Positions 332 through 12,640 of a stretch of DNA of 12,640 nt are shown here, in pieces. The notes under the pieces are model-generated. The model worked only from the letters and a program-made list of their open reading frames with translations, was not told where the DNA came from and searched no databases. The position numbers and the translations under genes are program-made. Positions within the stretch are counted from its first letter, which is position 1. Every line of letters starts with the position of its first letter. This DNA comes from a virus (taxonomy: Duplodnaviria; Heunggongvirae; Uroviricota; Caudoviricetes), in IMG/VR virus record IMGVR_UViG_2526164619_000008, positions 1-12,640 of that record; one strand, given 5' to 3'.

Positions 332-592
332 TTAATTCTGAGGTAAGGGCAAACTCATCTGATTGTTTCCTCTGTGTGAAGTTGGCAGTTCATGCCACGG
401 GATGCCCTCTGATGAGTGAATGGGGGAGGCGTGCTTTGAAGTGAATTTGTGGAAGGCTTCCAGTGTTGAGAAACATACGCCGCATTCTAGATTGTTACAC
501 TGATAATACTTTTGTCTCACGGTGTTTGAATCATTTTCCGGACGACTGGTGCGGATACGGGCAGATGCGCCACAAAGCGGACAACGGAACAT
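332..592 (-). CDS. ogr: Ogr/Delta-family zinc-finger late-gene transcription activator (86 aa, divergent)
   Basis: Translation begins MFRCPLCGASARIRTSRPE...YYQCNNLECG, matching the P2 Ogr N-terminus (recalled MFHCPLCQHAAHARTSR...YHQCQNVNCS) and its Cys-x2-Cys...Cys-x4-Cys arrangement. It sits downstream of gene D in the same orientation, as in P2, but with cargo in between. Confidence 0.7.
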   Translation of the reverse strand: MFRCPLCGASARIRTSRPENDSNTVRQKYYQCNNLECGVCFSTLEAFHKFTSKHASPIHSSEGIPWHELPTSHRGNNQMSLPLPQN

Positions 593-663: not shown

Positions 664-718
664 GGTAATGCTGCCAACTTACTGATTTAGTGTATGATGG
701 TGATTTTAAGGTGCTTGC

Positions 719-994
719 ATGGCTTCCATTTCCATCAGATGTCCTTCCTGCTCCGCTACTGAAGGCGTGGTGCGTAACGGCAAAAGCACTGCCGGACATC
801 AGCGCTATCTCTGCTCTCATTGCCGTAAAACATGGCAACTACAGTTCACTTACACCGCCTCTCAGCCCGGTACGCACCAGAAAATCATTGATATGGCCAT
901 GAATGGCGTCGGATGTCGCGCCAGTGCACGCATTATGGGCGTTGGCCTCAACACGGTTTTACGTCACTTAAAAAACTCAGGCCGCAGTCGGTAA
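719..994 (+). CDS. insA: IS1 InsA transposition regulator (91 aa)
   Basis: Translation [43 protein letters not shown]... is the recognisable InsA sequence. Confidence 0.95.
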
Positions 995-1416
995 CCTCGC
1001 GCATACAACCGGGCAGTGATGTGATTGTCTGCGCTGAAATGGACGAACAGTGGGGCTACGTCGGTGCTAAATCACGTCAGCGCTGGCTGTTTTACGCGTA
1101 TGACAGGATACGGAGGACGGTTGTGGCGCACGTCTTCGGTGAACGCACTCTGGCCACACTGGAGCGTCTTCTGAGCCTGCTGTCGGCCTTTGAGGTCGTG
1201 GTATGGATGACGGATGGCTGGCCGCTGTATGAATCACGCCTGAAGGGAAAGCTGCACGTTATCAGCAAGCGTTACACTCAGCGCATTGAGCGACATAATC
1301 TGAATCTGAGACAACATCTGGCAAGGCTGGGACGGAAGTCACTGTCGTTCTCAAAATCGGTGGAGCTGCATGACAAGGTCATCGGGCATTATCTGAACAT
1401 AAAACACTATCAGTAA
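913..1416 (+). CDS. insB: IS1 InsB reading frame, normally expressed as the InsAB' transposase by -1 frameshift at the A6C run 970..976
   Basis: Translation ...[26 protein letters not shown]...[38 protein letters not shown] is the recognisable InsB; AAAAAAC motif lies in the insA/insB overlap. Confidence 0.9.
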
Positions 1417-1431
1417 GTTGGAGTCATTATC

Positions 1432-1440
1432 GACTTTCTC
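1432..1440. repeat. 9-bp target-site duplication (GACTTTCTC), right copy, of the first IS1
   Basis: Exact repeat of 655..663. Confidence 0.85.
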
Positions 1441-1464
1441 TATATAATGATTTTTAGCATTAGT

Positions 1465-1496
1465 TAATAAACGAACGGCACTCTAAGGAGCGCCGT
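1465..1496 (-). terminator. Putative intrinsic terminator of the large cargo ORF
   Basis: On the minus strand, directly after the ORF stop: a 9-bp stem (ACGGCGCTC / GAGTGCCGT, one G-U pair) with a 4-nt loop, followed by TCGTTTATT. Folded by eye only. Confidence 0.45.
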
Positions 1497-1504
1497 CAAA
1501 GATA

Positions 1505-4336
1505 TTATTCTGATGTCACTCTTTGCGAGTGAGCTATTTTTAAATCAGCGTTTCCTTCAAATACTATATTCAACTCATAGTTAAGAGTTAGCTTGAATTT
1601 ATCTGAGTCACTTTTGATATTCTCTGAAGTGACATTTACTAACTTATTATTATCATATTCTCTAATAATTAATTTAGTGAAGTAGTTATCCTTTACCACT
1701 AGAGAAAATGGTTGATTAACAAATGGTAAGAAGTAAACCTTACAGGTACCGGATTCAGTAGTTATGTTCATAGAGCCATCATCATTTTTTCTCATTAGTT
1801 CTCTGAGGTTGGGATTATCGAAAAGCATACGATTATATTGCTGAAAGATCTCTTTACTCATCACAAGAACCAGTTTGCCAGCCAAGTCAGCAGATGATTT
1901 TATGTGATCAATCAACATATTGAAATCTTCTATTACGGTATGTTGCGAACAGCCAGTGCTAAATAAATTTGAAAGTATTATTCTCTGGATGTCCTTGAGA
2001 ATTAAGTCTGCTTGAATATCACCTTCATTGATATAAGGGATGGATTCTATTCCTTCGGCATACGGTTCTTTATCTATCTTAATAGATATCTTATGTTTTG
2101 TGAAACAATCGCTAGCCTGCTTAAAATCAATAGATTTGAAAAGTGAAAGAGGGAGTGTTTTCTTGATGCGTTTACGAAGATGTTCTGATGTTTTACGTGC
2201 AGTGCTATCTAGTCGATGTACATCTATGGCAGCATCCTGAAGTCTCATATCAAGATCTTTCTTTAGCATGTTAATATGCTCTTGAAGCAACTTTCTTAAG
2301 TTTTCTTTTTTTGTTTGGAGATCGTCCAATGTTAAAGTCAGCTTGATTTTAGTGTATTCGATGGAGTTACAAATTTTTGATAATACTCCAATGAGTCGTT
2401 GCTTCTCACGATATGTTATATAGTTTTTTTCTATTGCTTCTTTTATTTCTTTTGATACGCTATCGTTCTTGTTAGAAAAAATTAATAATAGCTGAACCCA
2501 TGATTGTTCCATATCAATAAATCCACAGTCAAAAACATTACTGTAAACTCTGCCCATCACCATGTCTGTTTTATCATAGTCACGTAAACGCCTTGCTAAA
2601 CTATTCATCCACCCATTGTGCTCCATATTTTCAGACCATGTCCACAGGCAGATTCTAATTAATATCTTGATTAGTTGGCTTGCATTATCAATTTCTTCAG
2701 TGGGAGTTTCATATCCACCGGTTTGGTCAATAAGTTTACCCTCTAAAATAAGTTTAATGTAATGTGTCATTAATTTGTCAGAAATATTGATTCTTGATGT
2801 CAGATAAAGACATGTGCATATACGCATGTCAGTCAACGCATTTATGATGGCAATATTGAACCACTCTCTGTCTGAATTGAAGTTTAGTTTTTTGGATATG
2901 AAAAAACCCGGGTTAAAAAGCTGGCCTTTGTAACTGTATTTTTCTACCGAATGGCTGTCAATATTCATTGAGTGCTGCCATCGGTTAATAAGAACGACGG
3001 CTGTATCAATAGTAGAAGGATCGCGAGTCTGTGTTGCATCAATAATCATCGATGGAAGTTCTTGTAGTTGCGTTTTGCAAAATAATTCAAATAAATCTGA
3101 ATTCTCTGTATTGCAGAAACGAAAGTTTATGCTTTCTTGATATTGCTCCCAAACAGTGGTATAGGTTCTTAATATACGATTATAACGTGAACGAAGCGAG
3201 GCATTTAAGAGTGATTGGTTGTTTCGGAACCATTCTGTTAATATTGACCATTGTGAACGAGTAATTCCCATATAGATACAAAGTTCATTGGTGATAAGAT
3301 GTTTTCTATTATTGATAATACGCACTCCGCTCCAAAGACATAATTCAAAAAATCTTTCAGAAAGATTAATTTTATCCATGGAATTATTTGATATTTTATA
3401 AACTTCATCTGAAAACTCATATTGAAAACTCCGTTCAAATAATTCTGTAGTGATCAGTAAGAAGTTATTGTTGGTATTATCATCTTGAAAAAAATACAAA
3501 TCGCAGAGATTATTAAAGTTATTAATTAATGCAGAGATAGCATTGTCAAAACTAATGAGATCAGAATCCCGCAGATACATATACGTATCTGCTGTTATAG
3601 CCTGCATTGTAAGACTTACGGAAAAATCTCCTCCTTTAATCGGAGCCCTATAAAAACATTGCTTAAGTATTTTTATTAATAAGCTGTCTGGTTTGATATT
3701 TTTAACGCTAAAAAGTATCTTACCCGTGGATTCTGTTTCTTTTGTACGATTATCACCAATGACAAATGACGCAAAATGATTCTTCTTTTTTAGTTGGTAA
3801 TTAATAAGATTAAGAGTAAGTTGAAAAGGACGGTGATATAAACTTAACTCATCTTCCTTAGAATAACTGCTAGCCACAGATATGTATTCTCCTTTGTAAC
3901 CGGCTTGCTTGATTTCTAAATTTGAATAGTTATGTTTTTGATAGATAGGGTATAACCTAAGCTTGGCTGAGATTTTGTTACAAATATGGGGCATTACTAT
4001 TTCGAAGGCAATGTATCGCTTTATAATTATTTGCCGTTTTACATCATCAAGAATTTCAAGACTCACGATAAAGAACCAAATAGAAAGAACTATGTTTATC
4101 AAAAGCCATAATATGCTGATTAGACAAGCTATACCATAAAGATAACTTCCAAAGACAGTTTTAATTAGTACACTGAGAAGTATAAATCCTGATAAGAAAA
4201 GCCCGCTGAGTCCAGCAAGCATGAATCCTGAGTAACGCTGATAAGCAGTTTGGGCTATTTTTCTATCTGCCTTTTTTTGGAATAAGACACTTACTAAACC
4301 TATAACAAGTGGGTATACAATACCAATAATTGTCAA
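1505..4336 (-). CDS. Large orphan protein (~943 aa) with a hydrophobic N-terminal region (about three predicted transmembrane helices) and a long Ile/Asn/Lys-rich soluble domain with coiled-coil-like stretches; function unknown
   Basis: Single uninterrupted ORF in a visibly AT-rich segment. The ORF-track start is TTG at 4336; the first in-frame ATG is at 4222 (codon 39), so the true start is uncertain. No Walker A or other catalytic motif recognised by eye. Confidence 0.7.
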   Translation of the reverse strand: MTIIGIVYPLVIGLVSVLFQKKADRKIAQTAYQRYSGFMLAGLSGLFLSGFILLSVLIKTVFGSYLYGIACLISILWLLINIVLSIWFFIVSLEILDDVKRQIIIKRYIAFEIVMPHICNKISAKLRLYPIYQKHNYSNLEIKQAGYKGEYISVASSYSKEDELSLYHRPFQLTLNLINYQLKKKNHFASFVIGDNRTKETESTGKILFSVKNIKPDSLLIKILKQCFYRAPIKGGDFSVSLTMQAITADTYMYLRDSDLISFDNAISALINNFNNLCDLYFFQDDNTNNNFLLITTELFERSFQYEFSDEVYKISNNSMDKINLSERFFELCLWSGVRIINNRKHLITNELCIYMGITRSQWSILTEWFRNNQSLLNASLRSRYNRILRTYTTVWEQYQESINFRFCNTENSDLFELFCKTQLQELPSMIIDATQTRDPSTIDTAVVLINRWQHSMNIDSHSVEKYSYKGQLFNPGFFISKKLNFNSDREWFNIAIINALTDMRICTCLYLTSRINISDKLMTHYIKLILEGKLIDQTGGYETPTEEIDNASQLIKILIRICLWTWSENMEHNGWMNSLARRLRDYDKTDMVMGRVYSNVFDCGFIDMEQSWVQLLLIFSNKNDSVSKEIKEAIEKNYITYREKQRLIGVLSKICNSIEYTKIKLTLTLDDLQTKKENLRKLLQEHINMLKKDLDMRLQDAAIDVHRLDSTARKTSEHLRKRIKKTLPLSLFKSIDFKQASDCFTKHKISIKIDKEPYAEGIESIPYINEGDIQADLILKDIQRIILSNLFSTGCSQHTVIEDFNMLIDHIKSSADLAGKLVLVMSKEIFQQYNRMLFDNPNLRELMRKNDDGSMNITTESGTCKVYFLPFVNQPFSLVVKDNYFTKLIIREYDNNKLVNVTSENIKSDSDKFKLTLNYELNIVFEGNADLKIAHSQRVTSE

Positions 4337-4871
4337 TTGGCCACTTAAAATGGTTGTTTGCCATTCGGTTAATGAATGCCTAAACGGGAAATAATGTAAA
4401 AGATTATTTTTTATAAATAATTCGTTTAAATATCCAACATAAAGTAGTACAAATGAAAAAGCTGATATGCAAAGTACTGATTTAACCGGTGAGGATGTTA
4501 ATCTTATGATGTTTTTTCAATAAAATTCCATTTTAAATTCGAATAAAATGGATTTTTAACCATTTTATTACGAACATAGTTCTTTGCTAAAATCTCTGTT
4601 GCACTTAAAAATTGTCCAATCATGAATTACTCTTCTATAAAGTGTGGGTCTACTAACTAAACTGGAATTTTTACTATTGAGTCATATTCCCTTGGACGGG
4701 ATGGACTGTGAAGATTATACTTGACTTCCTCTGTCATGTGGGAAAAACATCCGTATTATTGTTAGCATCTGGTTGATGCCCCAACCTCTGACATCTAGTG
4801 GGCTGATACATTATCTTTTGTTCTTACTGTCAGTGTAGAAGCACATCTCAAAAATAATATTTTTAAGAGAT
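4337..4871 (-). promoter_or_regulatory. AT-rich ~535-bp non-coding leader between the D stop and the cargo ORF; presumed promoter/regulatory region
   Basis: No ORF longer than ~26 codons on either strand; composition shifts abruptly at the gene D stop codon (4872). Confidence 0.35.
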
Positions 4872-5980
4872 TTATTCTATTTCTGCTATCCATTCCGGGA
4901 TTTTTGCTTCAAGTTCAAGCTGCGTGGTAAAGCCGCTGTTATCAATGGTGTGCTCGGCTTTTGCAATAATCCAGTCCTGATAATCAATCTCGCTTTTAAA
5001 GCCTGTCACTGTGCCATGCATTTCGGGATAGAGTTCTGCACGACCACGCGCCAGCGTGATGGAGAATGATGCGGCTCCGCGTTGTAGCTGCTGCCACTTT
5101 GCCGCCGCTGCGCGTCTTGCTGCCTGCTCGTTCTGATAAGTCTTGCGTAACACAAACACGTTGCCTTCCGCACCTTCCATATAGTCGCCTTCCCGACTGC
5201 TGCTTTTCTCCTTTTTGGGTTTTGGCGGTTTGCGGCGTTTCACGTTGACTTTTTTCTTTTCCCGTAATTAAGATCAAGCCAGTAGGCGCGTACCCCTGTA
5301 TACGCCTCGCGGTCAGCAATGCGGAACTGATGGCGATCGCCGCTGCTGCGTGTAATGGCGAACGAGGGCAACGGCTGCCCCTGTGCGTTCACGCCACCAC
5401 CTGGCATGATGAATAACAGATTGCCGCTTTTTACCGTGGCGATTGCTCCCAGCATTTCCGCCATGCGCGTAAGAAAGGACATGTCGCTTTCTTCGGTCTG
5501 GTCGGCGTGGTCGATTTCGATATCCATCAGCATTTCGCTGATTTGCGGTTTCAGGCCGTACCGATGAGCGATGGCGGATACCACACGCTCAACGGTCACA
5601 TCATGCCAGGACACCTCACGTTTAACGTTAAATTCATCCCGAAAATCTGCGCTTCTGGCTGAAACAGTCAGCCTGTCCGGCGGTCCTTCGTGAGCGATTT
5701 CATCAACAATGTAAGTGCCTTTTTCTGTCAGCGGTTCCCCTTTCCAGCCAATGAGAACCGTCAGACGCGCGCCCCGTGGCGGTAGCTGCAACTGACCATC
5801 CGCATCATCCAGCGTGATGGTGAGCTGGTCCGCCTCAAATCCCCGGTTGTCGGTCAGTGACAGGCACATCAGGCGCTCCGCCACGCCTGACAGCGTTTTA
5901 CCCTCCGAGAGAATATCAAAATCCGGCATTTTCACGGGGGCCGTGCCCTGACTGAGCAATTGCATGGTGGTGTCGGTCAT
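4872..5980 (-). pseudogene. D: P2-type tail protein D, interrupted by one frameshift in a homopolymer run (5250..5255)
   Basis: Two adjacent minus-strand ORFs (5240..6112 and 4872..5243) together match gpD (LTDNRGFEADQLTITLDDADGQLQLP..., SWHD, ITRSSGDRHQFRIADREAYTGV, REGDYMEGAEGNVFVL, GFTTQLELE). Adding one A to the AAAAAA run restores ...GKRKKVNVKRRKPPKPKKE.... Likely start is ATG at 5980 (MTDTTMQLL) with AGGGAGGGAG upstream. Confidence 0.85.
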
Positions 5981-6137
5981 CTGCTCCCTCCCTGTGCGGC
6001 ATGGTCGCATGTGCGTGCGGATGGGGTTACTGCTTTTTGTTGTCGCCGTGGCGGGAGAACGGCGCAGGGGTGAGATTGCGCGCGTGGTGGGTGATGATTG
6101 TTGCTGAATCATTTAACGGATACAAGGGGCTGAAGCT

Positions 6138-7322
6138 ATGAGTGAAACTCGTTTTCATGGTGCCCGTGTTACGGAGAATACCGACCTGGTAACAGCGATT
6201 AACGATGTTGATTCCAGCGTTATCGGTATCGTGGCAACGGCGGATGATGCGGACGCGAAGCTGTTCCCGCTGAACAAGCCCACACTGCTGACCCGCGTCA
6301 ATGACGTGCTGGGAAAATGCGGGACAACGGGGACGCTTTATCGTGCGCTTAAGGCCATCGCAGACCAGGTGAGCACAAAGGTGATCGTCGTTCGCGTGGC
6401 TGAACACAAAGAAGAAGACGGAAAGACGCAGGATCAACTGGTTATCGGTGGTTCTGAGGATGACGGCAGCTATACGGGGATGTATGCGCTGCTTGTTGCA
6501 GAGCAGGATGAAAGCATCGGATACCGTCCGCATATTCTGGCCGCGCCGGAGCTGGACACGGAGGCGGTAACAAAATCCCTGTGCGTGATTGCAGATAAAC
6601 TGCGCGCGTTTGTGTATGCCTCATGTCATGGCTGTAACACGATGGCCGAGGCAATTACCTACCGCCAGAAATTCAACGAACGTGAGGTGATGCTCTTATG
6701 GCCGGACTTCATCGCCTACAACCCGAAAAATGGCAAAAACGAAACGTTCCCCGCGCCTGCCTATGCGTGCGGCCTTCGTGCGTACATTGACCATGAACAG
6801 GGATGGCACAAATCGCTGTCCAACGTTCCGGTTAAAAATGTGCTGGGGATGTCGAGGCATGTGTTCTGGTCGTTGCAGGCCGAAGACAGCGATGCCAACA
6901 GCCTCAACAACAAAGAAATCACGACCATTATTCGTCGCAACGGGTTCCGCTTCTGGGGTAACCGCACACCGGAAACGAATGCCTACATCTTTGAGGTGTA
7001 TACCCGAACCGCACAGGTGCTGGCTGATTCAATTGCGGAAGCGCAGTTTGAAACCATCGACAGTCCACTGACGCCTGCGAATGTGAAGGATGTTATCAGT
7101 GCCATCAGGGCAAAACTGGATTCACTGGTGACTGCCGGGAAACTGATTGGCGCGGAGTGCTGGTATGACGTGGTGGATAACAGCACCACGGATTTACGTC
7201 AGGGACGTGTGCGTATTCGCTACAAATATACGCCCGTTCCGCCACTGGAAGACATGGAGCTTTACCAGACGTTTACTGATGAATACTTTGAACCCGCATT
7301 TGCGGTGCTGGGAGGTGCCTGA
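6138..7322 (+). CDS. FI: P2-type contractile tail sheath protein FI (394 aa)
   Basis: Translation contains DADAKLFPLNKPTLL, KLRAFVYAS, LLWPDF, EQGWHKSLSNV, RRNGFRFWGNRT, YTRTAQVLAD, YKYTPVPPLE, which match recalled P2 FI blocks; size matches (P2 FI ~396 aa); AAGGGG RBS. Confidence 0.9.
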   Translation: MSETRFHGARVTENTDLVTAINDVDSSVIGIVATADDADAKLFPLNKPTLLTRVNDVLGKCGTTGTLYRALKAIADQVSTKVIVVRVAEHKEEDGKTQDQLVIGGSEDDGSYTGMYALLVAEQDESIGYRPHILAAPELDTEAVTKSLCVIADKLRAFVYASCHGCNTMAEAITYRQKFNEREVMLLWPDFIAYNPKNGKNETFPAPAYACGLRAYIDHEQGWHKSLSNVPVKNVLGMSRHVFWSLQAEDSDANSLNNKEITTIIRRNGFRFWGNRTPETNAYIFEVYTRTAQVLADSIAEAQFETIDSPLTPANVKDVISAIRAKLDSLVTAGKLIGAECWYDVVDNSTTDLRQGRVRIRYKYTPVPPLEDMELYQTFTDEYFEPAFAVLGGA

Positions 7323-7819
7323 TGGCTGTGCCAAAACATCTTCGCTTTTTTACGCTGTTTGTGGATGGTGAAAACGAAGTGGGTAAGGTGACGTCCGTCA
7401 CTCTGCCTAAGCTGACGCGCAAAACCGACAGCTACCGGGGTGGTGGCATGATGGGTGCGGTAAGTATTGATCTCGGTCTGGACGACTCCGCGCTTGATGC
7501 GAGCTTTGTCATGGGGGGCGCAGTTCGTGAGCTGTTCCTTAAGTATGGCGGCACGATTGACGGCACGCTGCTGCGTTTTGCGGGTGAATACTACACCGAT
7601 GCAGAAAGCGACCTGTATGAAGTCGAAATGCGCGGACGTGTGACGGAAATTGATATGGGCGAAGCCACATCACACACTTACGCCATTAAAAACACCTACT
7701 ACAAGCTGAGTGTTAACGATCGCCCGTTGTGGGAGATTGACCTGCTGAACTTCATTTACCGGAAGGACGGCAAGGACATTGTGCCCGATCGCATCCGTTC
7801 CGCGCTTGGGCTTGGCTGA
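7322..7819 (+). CDS. FII: P2-type tail tube protein FII (165 aa)
   Basis: Start overlaps the FI stop (TGATG); GGAGGTG RBS; position and size match P2 FII. Confidence 0.85.
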   Translation: MAVPKHLRFFTLFVDGENEVGKVTSVTLPKLTRKTDSYRGGGMMGAVSIDLGLDDSALDASFVMGGAVRELFLKYGGTIDGTLLRFAGEYYTDAESDLYEVEMRGRVTEIDMGEATSHTYAIKNTYYKLSVNDRPLWEIDLLNFIYRKDGKDIVPDRIRSALGLG

Positions 7820-7874
7820 TAAGTAATATGCTGGCGGCGCAGTGCGTCGCCTCTGACTGAAAAGGAGACAACAG

Positions 7875-8249
7875 ATGAAAGACATCGATACTGAAACCCG
7901 GAATAACACCGTGGCGGATAATGTGACGGCAGTTGAGGATATGGCTGTCGAACGTGGCGTAAAACTGACCCGACCAATTGAGCGTGGTGGCGAAAAAATC
8001 ACGTATGTGGAGATCACCGGGGCTATTGAGCAGGCTGGATCCCTGCGTGGTCTGTCGCTGTCTGATGCGCTGAATCTGAAAGCGGATACCATGTTCACGC
8101 TGTTGCCTCGCGTGACCTCGCCACGACTGGATGAAGTGATGATTAAAAAAATGTCGTCACGCGATTTTATTCAGTTGTGCGCTGTGGCTGTAAATTTTAT
8201 GAGCGAGCCAGACTCTGGCGCGAAGAGCGTGCAGGAGACGGCAGCGTAA
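7875..8249 (+). CDS. E: Tail assembly chaperone E-like protein (124 aa)
   Basis: Called by synteny (directly after FII), AAAGGAG RBS 7 nt upstream of the ATG, and an overlapping -1 frame ORF as in the P2 E/E' pair. Not confirmed by sequence identity. Confidence 0.65.
   Translation: MKDIDTETRNNTVADNVTAVEDMAVERGVKLTRPIERGGEKITYVEITGAIEQAGSLRGLSLSDALNLKADTMFTLLPRVTSPRLDEVMIKKMSSRDFIQLCAVAVNFMSEPDSGAKSVQETAA
8192..8198 (+). other. Candidate -1 programmed frameshift heptamer A_AAT_TTT joining E to E'
   Basis: Zero-frame codons AAT TTT preceded by A give an X_XXY_YYZ heptamer inside the 8177..8249 overlap of the E frame and the -1 frame. Confidence 0.4.
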
Positions 8250-8389
8250 TCACCCTGGTGTGCTTTGAGCACATCGAAGATCTGGTGGCGGATATTGCCG
8301 CCATTTTTAACTGGTCGCCCGCCGAAATCTTCATGATGACGCCCGGCGAAGTGGTTAGCTGGCGTGAGCGGGCGGCACTTCGTAGCGGG
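8198..8389 (+). pseudogene. E' extension reading frame (-1 relative to E), 3' end cut by IS1
   Basis: The -1 frame stays open from 8177 and runs into IS1 with no native stop (...EVVSWRERAALRSGG then IS1-encoded NAANLLI*). Confidence 0.55.
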
Positions 8390-8444
8390 GGTAATGCTGC
8401 CAACTTACTGATTTAGTGTATGATGGTGATTTTAAGGTGCTTGC

Positions 8445-9157: not shown

Positions 9158-10353
9158 GAGTCGCGCATGGTGGCCCCGTTCCATTTGGGGTTCGGATGAC
9201 CGTTCTCCGTTGTTGCGTGGTATTTTGACGGGCAGTTGACAGTCAGAAACACCGCTTTGTCACCACGGGCTTCGGCCAGAGGTTCCAGCCCCTTCATGGT
9301 GGCCATCATTTCTGCCTTACGGTGAACCGGGTTACTTACTCCCGCGTAATACACTGTCTCGAGATCAATCGTGAACCCGTCTTCATTTTCCAGCATGAAA
9401 CTTTTCAGGAAATCGCGTGTTTTCTCGCGCTGTGCGCGAAACTCGCTTAACGCGTCCTGGCTCAGATAGGGCGATGTTTTTCTGAAAACCAGACAGGCGG
9501 CGCGGAGTTGTTCTTCTCTCCACTCGCAACGTAACAGCCACAGTTTGCGTTTCCACCATTCTGCACAGGTCAGGCGAAGGATTGCGCCCGGCAGCAGCTC
9601 CGTGTCCGGTTCGTTCCTCCGGTCTTTGTCTGTTGTCAGTGCGTCATAATGTGGAGGCATGGCGTGCAGGTGTAACGCCATGCGGGCCAGCATCTGATAC
9701 GCCTTCAGCGTTACATCCATGGTCAGTTCGCCATCGGTCGCGCCAAAGCCATCGCAGAGTTTTTCGAAGGTGCTGCTGAACATCGCTGCCGTCATGGTGG
9801 CCAGTGTCTGTATCTGGTGTTTGTTGAGCTGCGGCAGGTAAAGCAAATCGTCCAGGCGTTCGCGTCCGGCAAGGGAGCGATAACCCTGTGTCAGCCAGCG
9901 GTGATCGGTGCGCTCCAGACGTTCGAATATTTTGCGCAGGTTTCCGCGCGCGTAGCGTTCAGCCTGCCAGCTCTTTTTGCCTTTCTGACGATCGGCTTCC
10001 TGTTTTTTGCGCAGGAAGGAGAGGTGGCGAATAAGCGGATCGCGCAGATAGGACGGCAGCAGGCGCAGCGAGGCCATGGCTTCATCCACCGCGCCGCGTG
10101 CCTGTTTTCTGGCATCTCCTGCCAGTGTGATGGTTTTGTCCTGTTTTTCCTGTGCGTCCAGGCTTTTATTAATCAGGTTGCCCAGCGGCGTTGCGGAGAA
10201 CGCCGCATCAGCCATTTCCTGGCGGCGCTCGTTCTCTACCCGGTAGGCATCCAGCCAGGAGGAAAGCGCGGATTCAGGAGCGGGGATCCCCGTTCCTTCA
10301 CGCCCCACTGCGTGGCGCGGTTGTTGCCAGTCCCTGATGTACTCTGCCGTCAT
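9158..10353 (-). pseudogene. A: P2-type replication initiation protein A, N-terminal ~398 codons only; 3' part replaced by IS1
   Basis: Translation has HAVGREGTG and FLTVNCPSKYHATT blocks resembling recalled P2/186 A-protein motifs; the ORF runs from ATG 10353 into the IS1 right end, whose sequence supplies the last 7 codons and stop. P2 A is ~761 aa, so the catalytic C-terminal half is missing. Confidence 0.7.
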
Positions 10354-12060: not shown

Positions 12061-12266
12061 TTATAAATCAGTCTGTTTAATAAAACTTTGCCCGCGAAGC
12101 AGACGATCAACCGTGCGAAGTGCTTCGTATAATGTGAAATCCTGCCCGAACTGATTGTCGCCACAGCTCAATGCAAAAATGCGGTTTCCGGTAAACGGAT
12201 TGCGTGGGCATTTGTGGATCACGATTCCAGCTTTCTCAATCAGCCAGGTGTGCTCGCCGATTTGTT
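12061..12266 (-). pseudogene. 5'-truncated gene fragment (C-terminal ~68 codons) cut by IS911
   Basis: The minus-strand ORF 12061..12339 takes its first ~24 codons from IS911 left-end sequence; native coding starts at the IS911 boundary (12266) with no internal Met. Confidence 0.45.

Positions 12267-12640
<374 letters not shown>

Follow-up and report, generated by a model that had tools for sequence, protein, structure and literature searches.

Results

Gene content of the window

The window analysed here is the whole 12,640-nucleotide stretch of IMG/VR record IMGVR_UViG_2526164619_000008. It contains a leftward group of late genes headed by D and a rightward group headed by the sheath gene FI, with two IS1 copies and part of the replication region. 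The following features were assigned:

332..592, minus strand: ogr-like gene for a late activator of 86 aa, apparently intact (Pfam Ogr_Delta, 52 bits, E 5e-14, cutoff 26.3)
664..1431, plus strand: left IS1 copy between ogr and the cargo gene; simple insertion, 9-bp target duplication GACTTTCTC
1505..4623, minus strand: AT-rich cargo ORF, 32-35% GC, 1039 aa when intact; here a 943-aa ORF, 1505..4336
4872..5980, minus strand: gene D, tail/baseplate hub (Pfam Phage_GPD on both ORF pieces, 5240..5980 and 4872..5243)
5981..6137, no strand: D/FI intergenic region, 157 bp, read as a probable bidirectional late promoter
6138..7322, plus strand: FI, tail sheath (Pfam Phage_sheath_1, Gp18_domIII_N and Phage_sheath_1C)
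7322..7819, plus strand: FII, tail tube (Pfam Phage_tube, 139 bits)
7875..8249, plus strand: E, tail assembly chaperone (Pfam Phage_TAC_7, weak, E 5e-4; same position as E in L001 and P88)
8258..8389, plus strand: E' reading frame, 3' end cut by IS1; coordinates transferred from L001
8390..9157, plus strand: right IS1 copy, no target duplication, joining the E'/T boundary to mid-A
9158..10353, minus strand: 5' part of replication gene A, truncated by IS1 (Pfam Phage_GPA, 261 bits, profile positions 1-216 of 321)
12155..12640, plus strand: IS3-family transposase orfA (HTH_Tnp_1)

The ogr gene shares its strand with D and the cargo gene and is located downstream of both. Its counterpart in L001, a reference prophage of E. 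coli (NZ_CP136025), is annotated as an Ogr/Delta-like zinc finger protein. Alignment to D of L001 gave 369 aa for the intact D protein. FI of the window was 46.5% identical to P2 FI and 97-99% identical to FI of the P88 group. The Phage_GPA ORF as listed runs from 10353 to 9136 on the minus strand, which also carries the early genes. The IS3-family orfA presumably resembles that of IS911. No family was found when the whole window was scanned against Rfam.

Boundaries of the D/FI gap

The first base of D is 5980 (minus strand) and that of FI is 6138 (plus strand), which leaves 157 bp between them and confirms the divergent arrangement described in the earlier note. The P2 order with which that note contrasted it, FI-FII-E-E'-T-U-D in one direction, was also borne out: in the P2 record AF063097 these genes and ogr are all co-oriented. 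The D start codon is the ATG at 5980..5978 (minus strand), and an alternative ATG lies upstream at 6112. The start at 5980 was preferred because it matches the annotated D start in the intact E. coli prophage and in P88, because the minus strand has a Shine-Dalgarno sequence, GGGAGGGAG, at 5983..5991, and because a cross-genus alignment upstream of it contained indels that were not multiples of three.

Two longer frames, a 290-aa ORF at 5240..6112 and a 168-aa ORF at 6027..6533, were rejected as coding because their frames were not conserved across genera. Small ORFs annotated in the gap in three public phage records (P88 33155..33286, Chuche 4127..4267 and SEN4 7859..8011, all called as hypothetical) were rejected on the same ground. 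Start codons in other records were over-extended: the D start in the KSP20 record (838..2268) overlaps FI, and the FI starts of phiT5282H (7247) and ST16-OXA48phi5.4 (1560) are extended by 15 and 42 codons, respectively.

The divergent D/FI order in prophages and isolated phages

Window positions 4800..7400 were used as a megablast query against 5426 complete E. coli genomes. The D/FI junction was covered at 80% or more in 1116 of them, nearly all at 95-99% identity. L001 is an apparently complete prophage next to ihfA and contains the full late gene set. One strand of L001 carries hok, ogr, the cargo gene and D, and the opposite strand carries FI-FII-E-E'-T-U. U is followed by an invertase and an invertible fibre segment. 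Next on the first strand come H-I-J-W-V-S-R, the lysis genes and X-L-M-N-O, whereas P and Q are divergent. Window positions 1432..8389 were colinear with L001 at 99.2% identity: 33 substitutions and four indels were found, and the interval 5981..6137 was intact.

A blastn search for the junction was run against 50,697 phage records. Contiguous junctions were found at 93-97% identity in Escherichia phages P88, 500465-2, P884B11, PhiR44_2 and Chuche and in Citrobacter Shae_phiSM, and at 69-73% identity in Enterobacter phiT5282H, Serratia KSP20, Klebsiella 3LV2017 and Klebsiella ST16-OXA48phi5.4. Salmonella SEN4 was located through its FI protein (55% identical), and the divergent D/FI order was present there as well. 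Isolated or induced phages with the junction thus span at least five Peduoviridae genera: Xuanwuvirus (P88), Novemvirus (phiT5282H), Reginaelenavirus (3LV2017), Reipivirus (ST16-OXA48phi5.4) and Senquatrovirus (SEN4).

The junctions of P88 and phiSM were 96-97% identical to that of the window, with P88 matching at 97.2% over 97% of window positions 4800-7400. Identity to P88 was 94.3% over window positions 4876..8403 and 91-97% over A and the early genes. P88 can be induced with mitomycin C and yields plaques, and its measured burst size is about 65 (PMC5285337). For phiSM, a phage of Citrobacter rodentium, spontaneous release, plaque formation and lysogeny of K-12 have been reported (PMC6456863).

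The divergent D/FI order is the native, functional order of the P88-group clade, and the window holds the decayed remains of a P2-like prophage of the P88 group (Peduoviridae, Xuanwuvirus and relatives). The earlier note had offered a breakpoint and a distinct native order as alternatives; the second stands, given the junction in viable P88 and phiSM and in 1116 E. coli genomes, and the first does not. Viable phages with divergent D and FI exist (P88 and phiSM), and phages of four further genera share the junction; this is the outcome that the earlier note had named as showing a native order and not a rearrangement. Synteny with intact prophages and phages ran unbroken across 5981..6137, which argues against a breakpoint there.

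Relative to P2, the inverted part is the FI-FII-E-E'-T-U cassette, and this inversion is fixed in the clade. D is divergent from FI because D and ogr are still oriented like the head, baseplate and fibre operon (the O-to-G genes). The gene order itself is already known: it belongs to recognised ICTV genera and is visible in public annotated records. The KSP20 features labelled gpD-like and gpFI-like are on opposite strands, and the D and sheath genes of P88 are likewise opposed. A literature search found no paper describing the FI-U inversion or a D/FI late promoter.

Limits of the clade

The arrangement was further examined in a scan of one genome per species, in which six FI proteins were aligned and the intact D protein was used in tblastn. 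Where FI was at least 55% identical to window FI, D was divergent and immediately upstream in 24 of 24 loci. Where FI was at most 51% identical, D lay within 2.5 kb upstream in none of 56 loci. Among these one-genome-per-species contigs the arrangement tracked the sheath phylogeny perfectly. The 24 loci come from Salmonella, Citrobacter, Enterobacter, Kosakonia, Symbiopectobacterium, Mixta, Erwinia, Trabulsiella, Raoultella, Yokenella, Providencia, Xenorhabdus, Pectobacterium, Chania, Dryocola and Klebsiella. One Dagavirus phage, with an FI 48.6% identical to that of the window, has the standard P2 order FI...U-D-ogr.

Decay of this prophage copy

The two IS1 copies are 768 bp each, in direct orientation and 99% identical, with terminal inverted repeats. 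The flanks of the left copy are contiguous in L001, with a 9-bp overlap. The right copy marks a deletion of about 23.7 kb that removed T, U and the fibre, baseplate, lysis, head and packaging genes; the lack of T and U in the window is due to this deletion. Colinearity with L001 ends at about 8389 (L001 23604), inside E' (L001 23475..23630) and 13 nt before T (L001 23617). The right flank of the right IS1 corresponds to P88 position 7152, inside A (P88 5957..8779).

Smaller lesions were found by comparison with L001. D has lost 1 nt from an A-run near 5256-5261, which splits it into two ORFs, and the cargo ORF is broken by the loss of 1 nt from a T-run near 4511. Both frameshifts lie in homopolymers and could be true pseudogenisation or sequencing errors. 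FII has a 15-bp in-frame deletion, GGGGGAAGCCAAACA, near 7656, giving a tube protein of 165 aa compared to 170 aa. On the early side, homology to P88 stops at about 12267 (P88 2185), where the IS3-family element abuts the early region. Since the orfA of this element begins where P88 homology ends, the prophage end with cox, C and int lies outside the window.

The window therefore does not hold a complete, inducible genome, as T through the 3' half of A is missing and D is frameshifted. Compared to P88, it is a remnant with a frameshifted D, two IS1 copies and a deletion from T through half of A. This copy is the remnant of a P88-group member and not a viable member itself; the element is dead.

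D lesions of another kind were seen in E. coli O104:H4 C227-11 (L091 5033..5886) and ETEC4088 (L093 8073..8926), where the only annotation for D is an 801-bp "VgrG/Pvc8 family" fragment and a pseudogene stub. These differ from the lesion in the window, and D seems to have been inactivated repeatedly in remnants at the ihfA-adjacent site.

A predicted activator site in the gap

No exact TGT-N12-ACA dyad is present in 5981..6137, as the earlier note had reported. This is no sign of a breakpoint: the activator sites of P2 pF and pP/pO, which were defined by experiment, are themselves TGT-N12-CCA, and because P2's own sites are imperfect, the absence of a perfect dyad is no argument against a late promoter. 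A one-mismatch dyad, TGT-N12-AGA (TGTCGCCGTGGCGGGAGA), lies at 6041..6058 within the gap. The elements predicted there are:

6001..6009, minus strand: predicted P_D extended -10, TG-C-GACCAT (hexamer 6006..6001, TG 6009..6008); predicted start about 5994
6037..6060, no strand: predicted Ogr-type activator site, TTGTTGT-N12-AGAAC; core 6041..6058, centre 6049.5
6093..6098, plus strand: predicted P_F -10, GATGAT, with A2, A5 and T6 invariant in an eight-phage alignment; predicted start about 6105

One-mismatch matches to TGT-N12-ACA are common: 64 were found in the 12.6-kb window compared to 65.6 expected, about 0.8 per 157 bp. The motif alone therefore has no discriminating power, and we relied on orthology and position instead. 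The D/FI gap is 151-157 bp long across relatives, and conserved islands in it persist across genera. TTGTTG (6037..6042) and the right half-site A.A.C (6056, 6058 and 6060) were invariant in eight phages, in an alignment with a mean column identity of 65%. A T[GC]T-N12-A[CG]A dyad was located 75-89 nt upstream of the FI ATG in 30 of 32 D/FI intergenic regions.

The orthologous site took several forms among the 32 regions. It was the perfect TGT-N12-ACA in 14 (3LV2017, KSP20, SEN4 and 11 further loci) and TGT-N12-AGA in 15. In Providencia huashanensis (L027) the dyad is fully symmetric, GGTTCTC-N9-GAGAACC (TCT-N12-AGA), which suggests that AGAAC is a genuine alternative half-site. Two copies from Symbiopectobacterium sp. 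RP (L015 and L024) have a degenerate right half, AGG. The dyad of the window is asymmetric: the half-site facing D is of the ACAAC type, and the one facing FI is AGAAC.

The exact motif TTGTTGT-N12-ASA has just two copies in the P88 genome (35.8 kb), one in the P/O gap and one in the D/FI gap, both of which are divergent. As the motif was derived from the D/FI site, the P/O copy is the sole independent hit; its chance probability is estimated at about 6e-4 in 154 bp. The spacer that separates the D stop from the cargo gene in the window also contains two exact TGT-N12-ACA dyads, at 4732..4749 and 4828..4845, within 100 bp of each other.

Predicted promoters on both sides of the dyad

Thirty unique D/FI intergenic regions were anchored on their dyad centres, and offsets of 10 to 58 were compared. 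A rightward NANNNT hexamer (GATGAT, GATTAT or GAATAT) was found 43.5 to 48.5 nt from the centre in 28 of 30 regions, with the next-best offset at 7 of 30, and a leftward NANNNT hexamer (GACCAT, AACCAT, AATCAT or GATCCT) was found at the mirror position, 43.5-48.5 nt, in 29 of 30, with other offsets at 4 of 30 or fewer; as the 30 sequences are phylogenetically related, these counts overstate the number of independent observations. TGn precedes the leftward hexamer in 22 of the 30 related regions, including that of the window. The P_D hexamers match TATAAT weakly and are constant at positions A2 and T6 only.

In the window both hexamers lie 43.5 nt from the centre at 6049.5, and the predicted starts, at about 5994 and 6105, are 111 bp apart. 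The predicted leaders are about 33 nt for P_F to FI and about 14 nt for P_D, the latter containing the Shine-Dalgarno sequence of D. A scan of 5850..6250 for sigma-70 promoters and terminators found nothing within the gap; the only hit was inside the D coding sequence. The lack of a sigma-70 consensus promoter in the gap fits activator dependence. In P2, late transcription requires Ogr together with the RNA polymerase alpha subunit. The gap has predicted -10 hexamers with no recognisable -35, as in P2-type late promoters, and the cognate ogr is present in the window.

From these sequence features, the gap is most likely a compact bidirectional Ogr-dependent late promoter. One palindromic Ogr-type site would lie about 55 nt upstream of each of two back-to-back promoters lacking a -35. 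P_F would drive FI-U, and P_D would drive D and then, by read-through, the cargo gene and ogr. In the window itself, the frameshift in D and the loss of T and U leave the system unable to function.

Comparison with P2 and P88

Read as a promoter, the gap would be a further case of an architecture already known from P2 and no new kind of system. In the P2 record AF063097, a single activator binding site at 3057..3087 serves pP (start 3016) and pO (start 3127). These starts are 111 bp apart, and the dyad centre at 3071.5 is 55.5 nt from each. Similar to P2 pP/pO, the D/FI gap has back-to-back late operons about 150-170 bp apart with one imperfect dyad about 55 nt from each start (here predicted). 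Its predicted -10 hexamers are likewise weak and lie about 43.5 nt from the dyad centre in each direction, and a -35 consensus is absent; the mapped P2 promoters pO, pP and pF have weak hexamers (GAAACT, TAGCCT and GAAAAT) at the same distance from the dyad. In contrast, the P2 pair lies between P and O and its starts were mapped, whereas here the pair would lie between D and FI and the starts are predicted. The half-site also differs: AGAAC in the window and CCAxC in P2 pP/pO.

The P2 F operon shares with the window homologous genes, an activator-type dyad 82-89 nt upstream of the FI ATG and an ogr gene downstream of D. Unlike the P2 F operon, in which D is last and co-oriented, the operon here ends after U and D heads the leftward unit. 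In P88, too, ogr and D share a strand opposite to that of FI-FII-E-E'-T-U, the gap is 157 bp and the dyad sequence is identical. Phages 3LV2017, ST16-OXA48phi5.4, phiT5282H, SEN4 and KSP20 show the same order, a gap of 151-157 bp and the same placement of dyad and -10 hexamers. They differ from the window in FI (55-76% identical), and several have a perfect TGT-N12-ACA. An 18-bp stem-loop with a T-run is present at P88 27555..27596, between the invertase stop and the U stop, and probably serves as a bidirectional terminator at the end of the shortened F operon, behind U.

Alternative explanations

Two other accounts of the junction were weighed. A breakpoint specific to this genome, made by an IS1-mediated inversion or deletion, would be in keeping with the two IS1 copies that flank the junction region and with an element that is clearly rearranged elsewhere, having lost about 24 kb between E' and A. 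However, the segment 1432..8389 including the junction is colinear (99.2%) with an intact prophage free of IS1, and the junction is 96-97% identical in viable phages. No IS is present at the junction itself, the closest IS1 ends being 4.5 kb away on the left and 2.2 kb away on the right: the left copy is a simple insertion with its 9-bp target duplication, and the right copy accounts for the deletion 2.2 kb away. The copies are direct and not inverted repeats, so they could not have inverted the segment between them, and the chance that such a breakpoint explains the junction is negligible. It is also very improbable that FI-U is a switchable segment, flipped by a Hin/Cin-type invertase beside U, with the P2-like orientation also present in the population. 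A recombinase/invertase gene does lie immediately after U in P88 and the E. coli prophages, but no inverted repeats flank FI-U in P88, where the only long ones bound the tail-fibre/fibre-assembly segment at 24803..26005. Moreover, 3LV2017, phiT5282H and SEN4 have no invertase beside U and yet show the same fixed orientation, and a single orientation was seen in all 24 clade loci of the species scan and in all phages examined.

A third account accepts the native order but has the dyad at 6041..6058 serve P_F only, with D transcribed from a separate promoter (Ogr-independent or otherwise regulated) or through a second, unrecognised activator site. The weakness of the leftward -10 hexamers and the asymmetry of the window dyad speak for it. 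Against it, the leftward NANNNT (29 of 30) with TGn (22 of 30) mirrors the distance of the P_F hexamer, which is otherwise hard to explain, and no other conserved dyad or sigma-70 consensus promoter is present within the gap. In P2, one activator site serves both pP and pO, and D is an essential late tail gene. We consider this account unlikely. A native D/FI order together with a 157-bp gap predicted to act as an Ogr-dependent bidirectional late promoter is, as a joint explanation, highly probable.

Implications for gene order and regulation

These results indicate that P2 is no universal template for the gene order of P2-like phages. The enterobacterial clade with FI-U inverted comprises Xuanwuvirus, Reginaelenavirus, Reipivirus, Novemvirus and Senquatrovirus as well as prophages in about one-fifth of complete E. 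coli genomes. Because the junction is native to this large clade, annotators and prophage-integrity callers should not score it as a rearrangement. If the shared-site promoter is true, a single Ogr site serving two divergent late promoters would be known from a second case in nature.

A broader scenario has, in our judgement, an even chance of being correct. An ancient inversion of FI-U would have moved the pF site beside D and so created a second promoter of the pP/pO type, one Ogr dimer site would co-activate the tail-tube/sheath operon and the D-(cargo)-ogr unit, read-through from P_D into ogr would provide positive feedback, and the slot between D and ogr would be a moron site absent from the published P2 hotspots. 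The published P2 hotspot paper describes the gpA-gpQ locus only (PMC9122126).

The cargo slot between D and ogr

The D-ogr gap is a cargo slot whose content varies among relatives. The 1039-aa cargo ORF was found in the window, in L001 (16705..19824) and in two further loci (L092 and L093), with the PGAP label "MFS transporter" or "hypothetical protein". The protein had no match in Pfam, PADLOC or NCBIfam. In E. coli O104:H4 the slot (L091 3772..4941) holds a DUF3800 gene and an IS5. P88 and Chuche differ from the window in lacking the AT-rich cargo gene, and their slot is empty. A perfect TATAAT is present at 4719..4714 (minus strand), about 90 nt upstream of the cargo ATG at 4623, suggesting that the cargo gene may have its own constitutive promoter.
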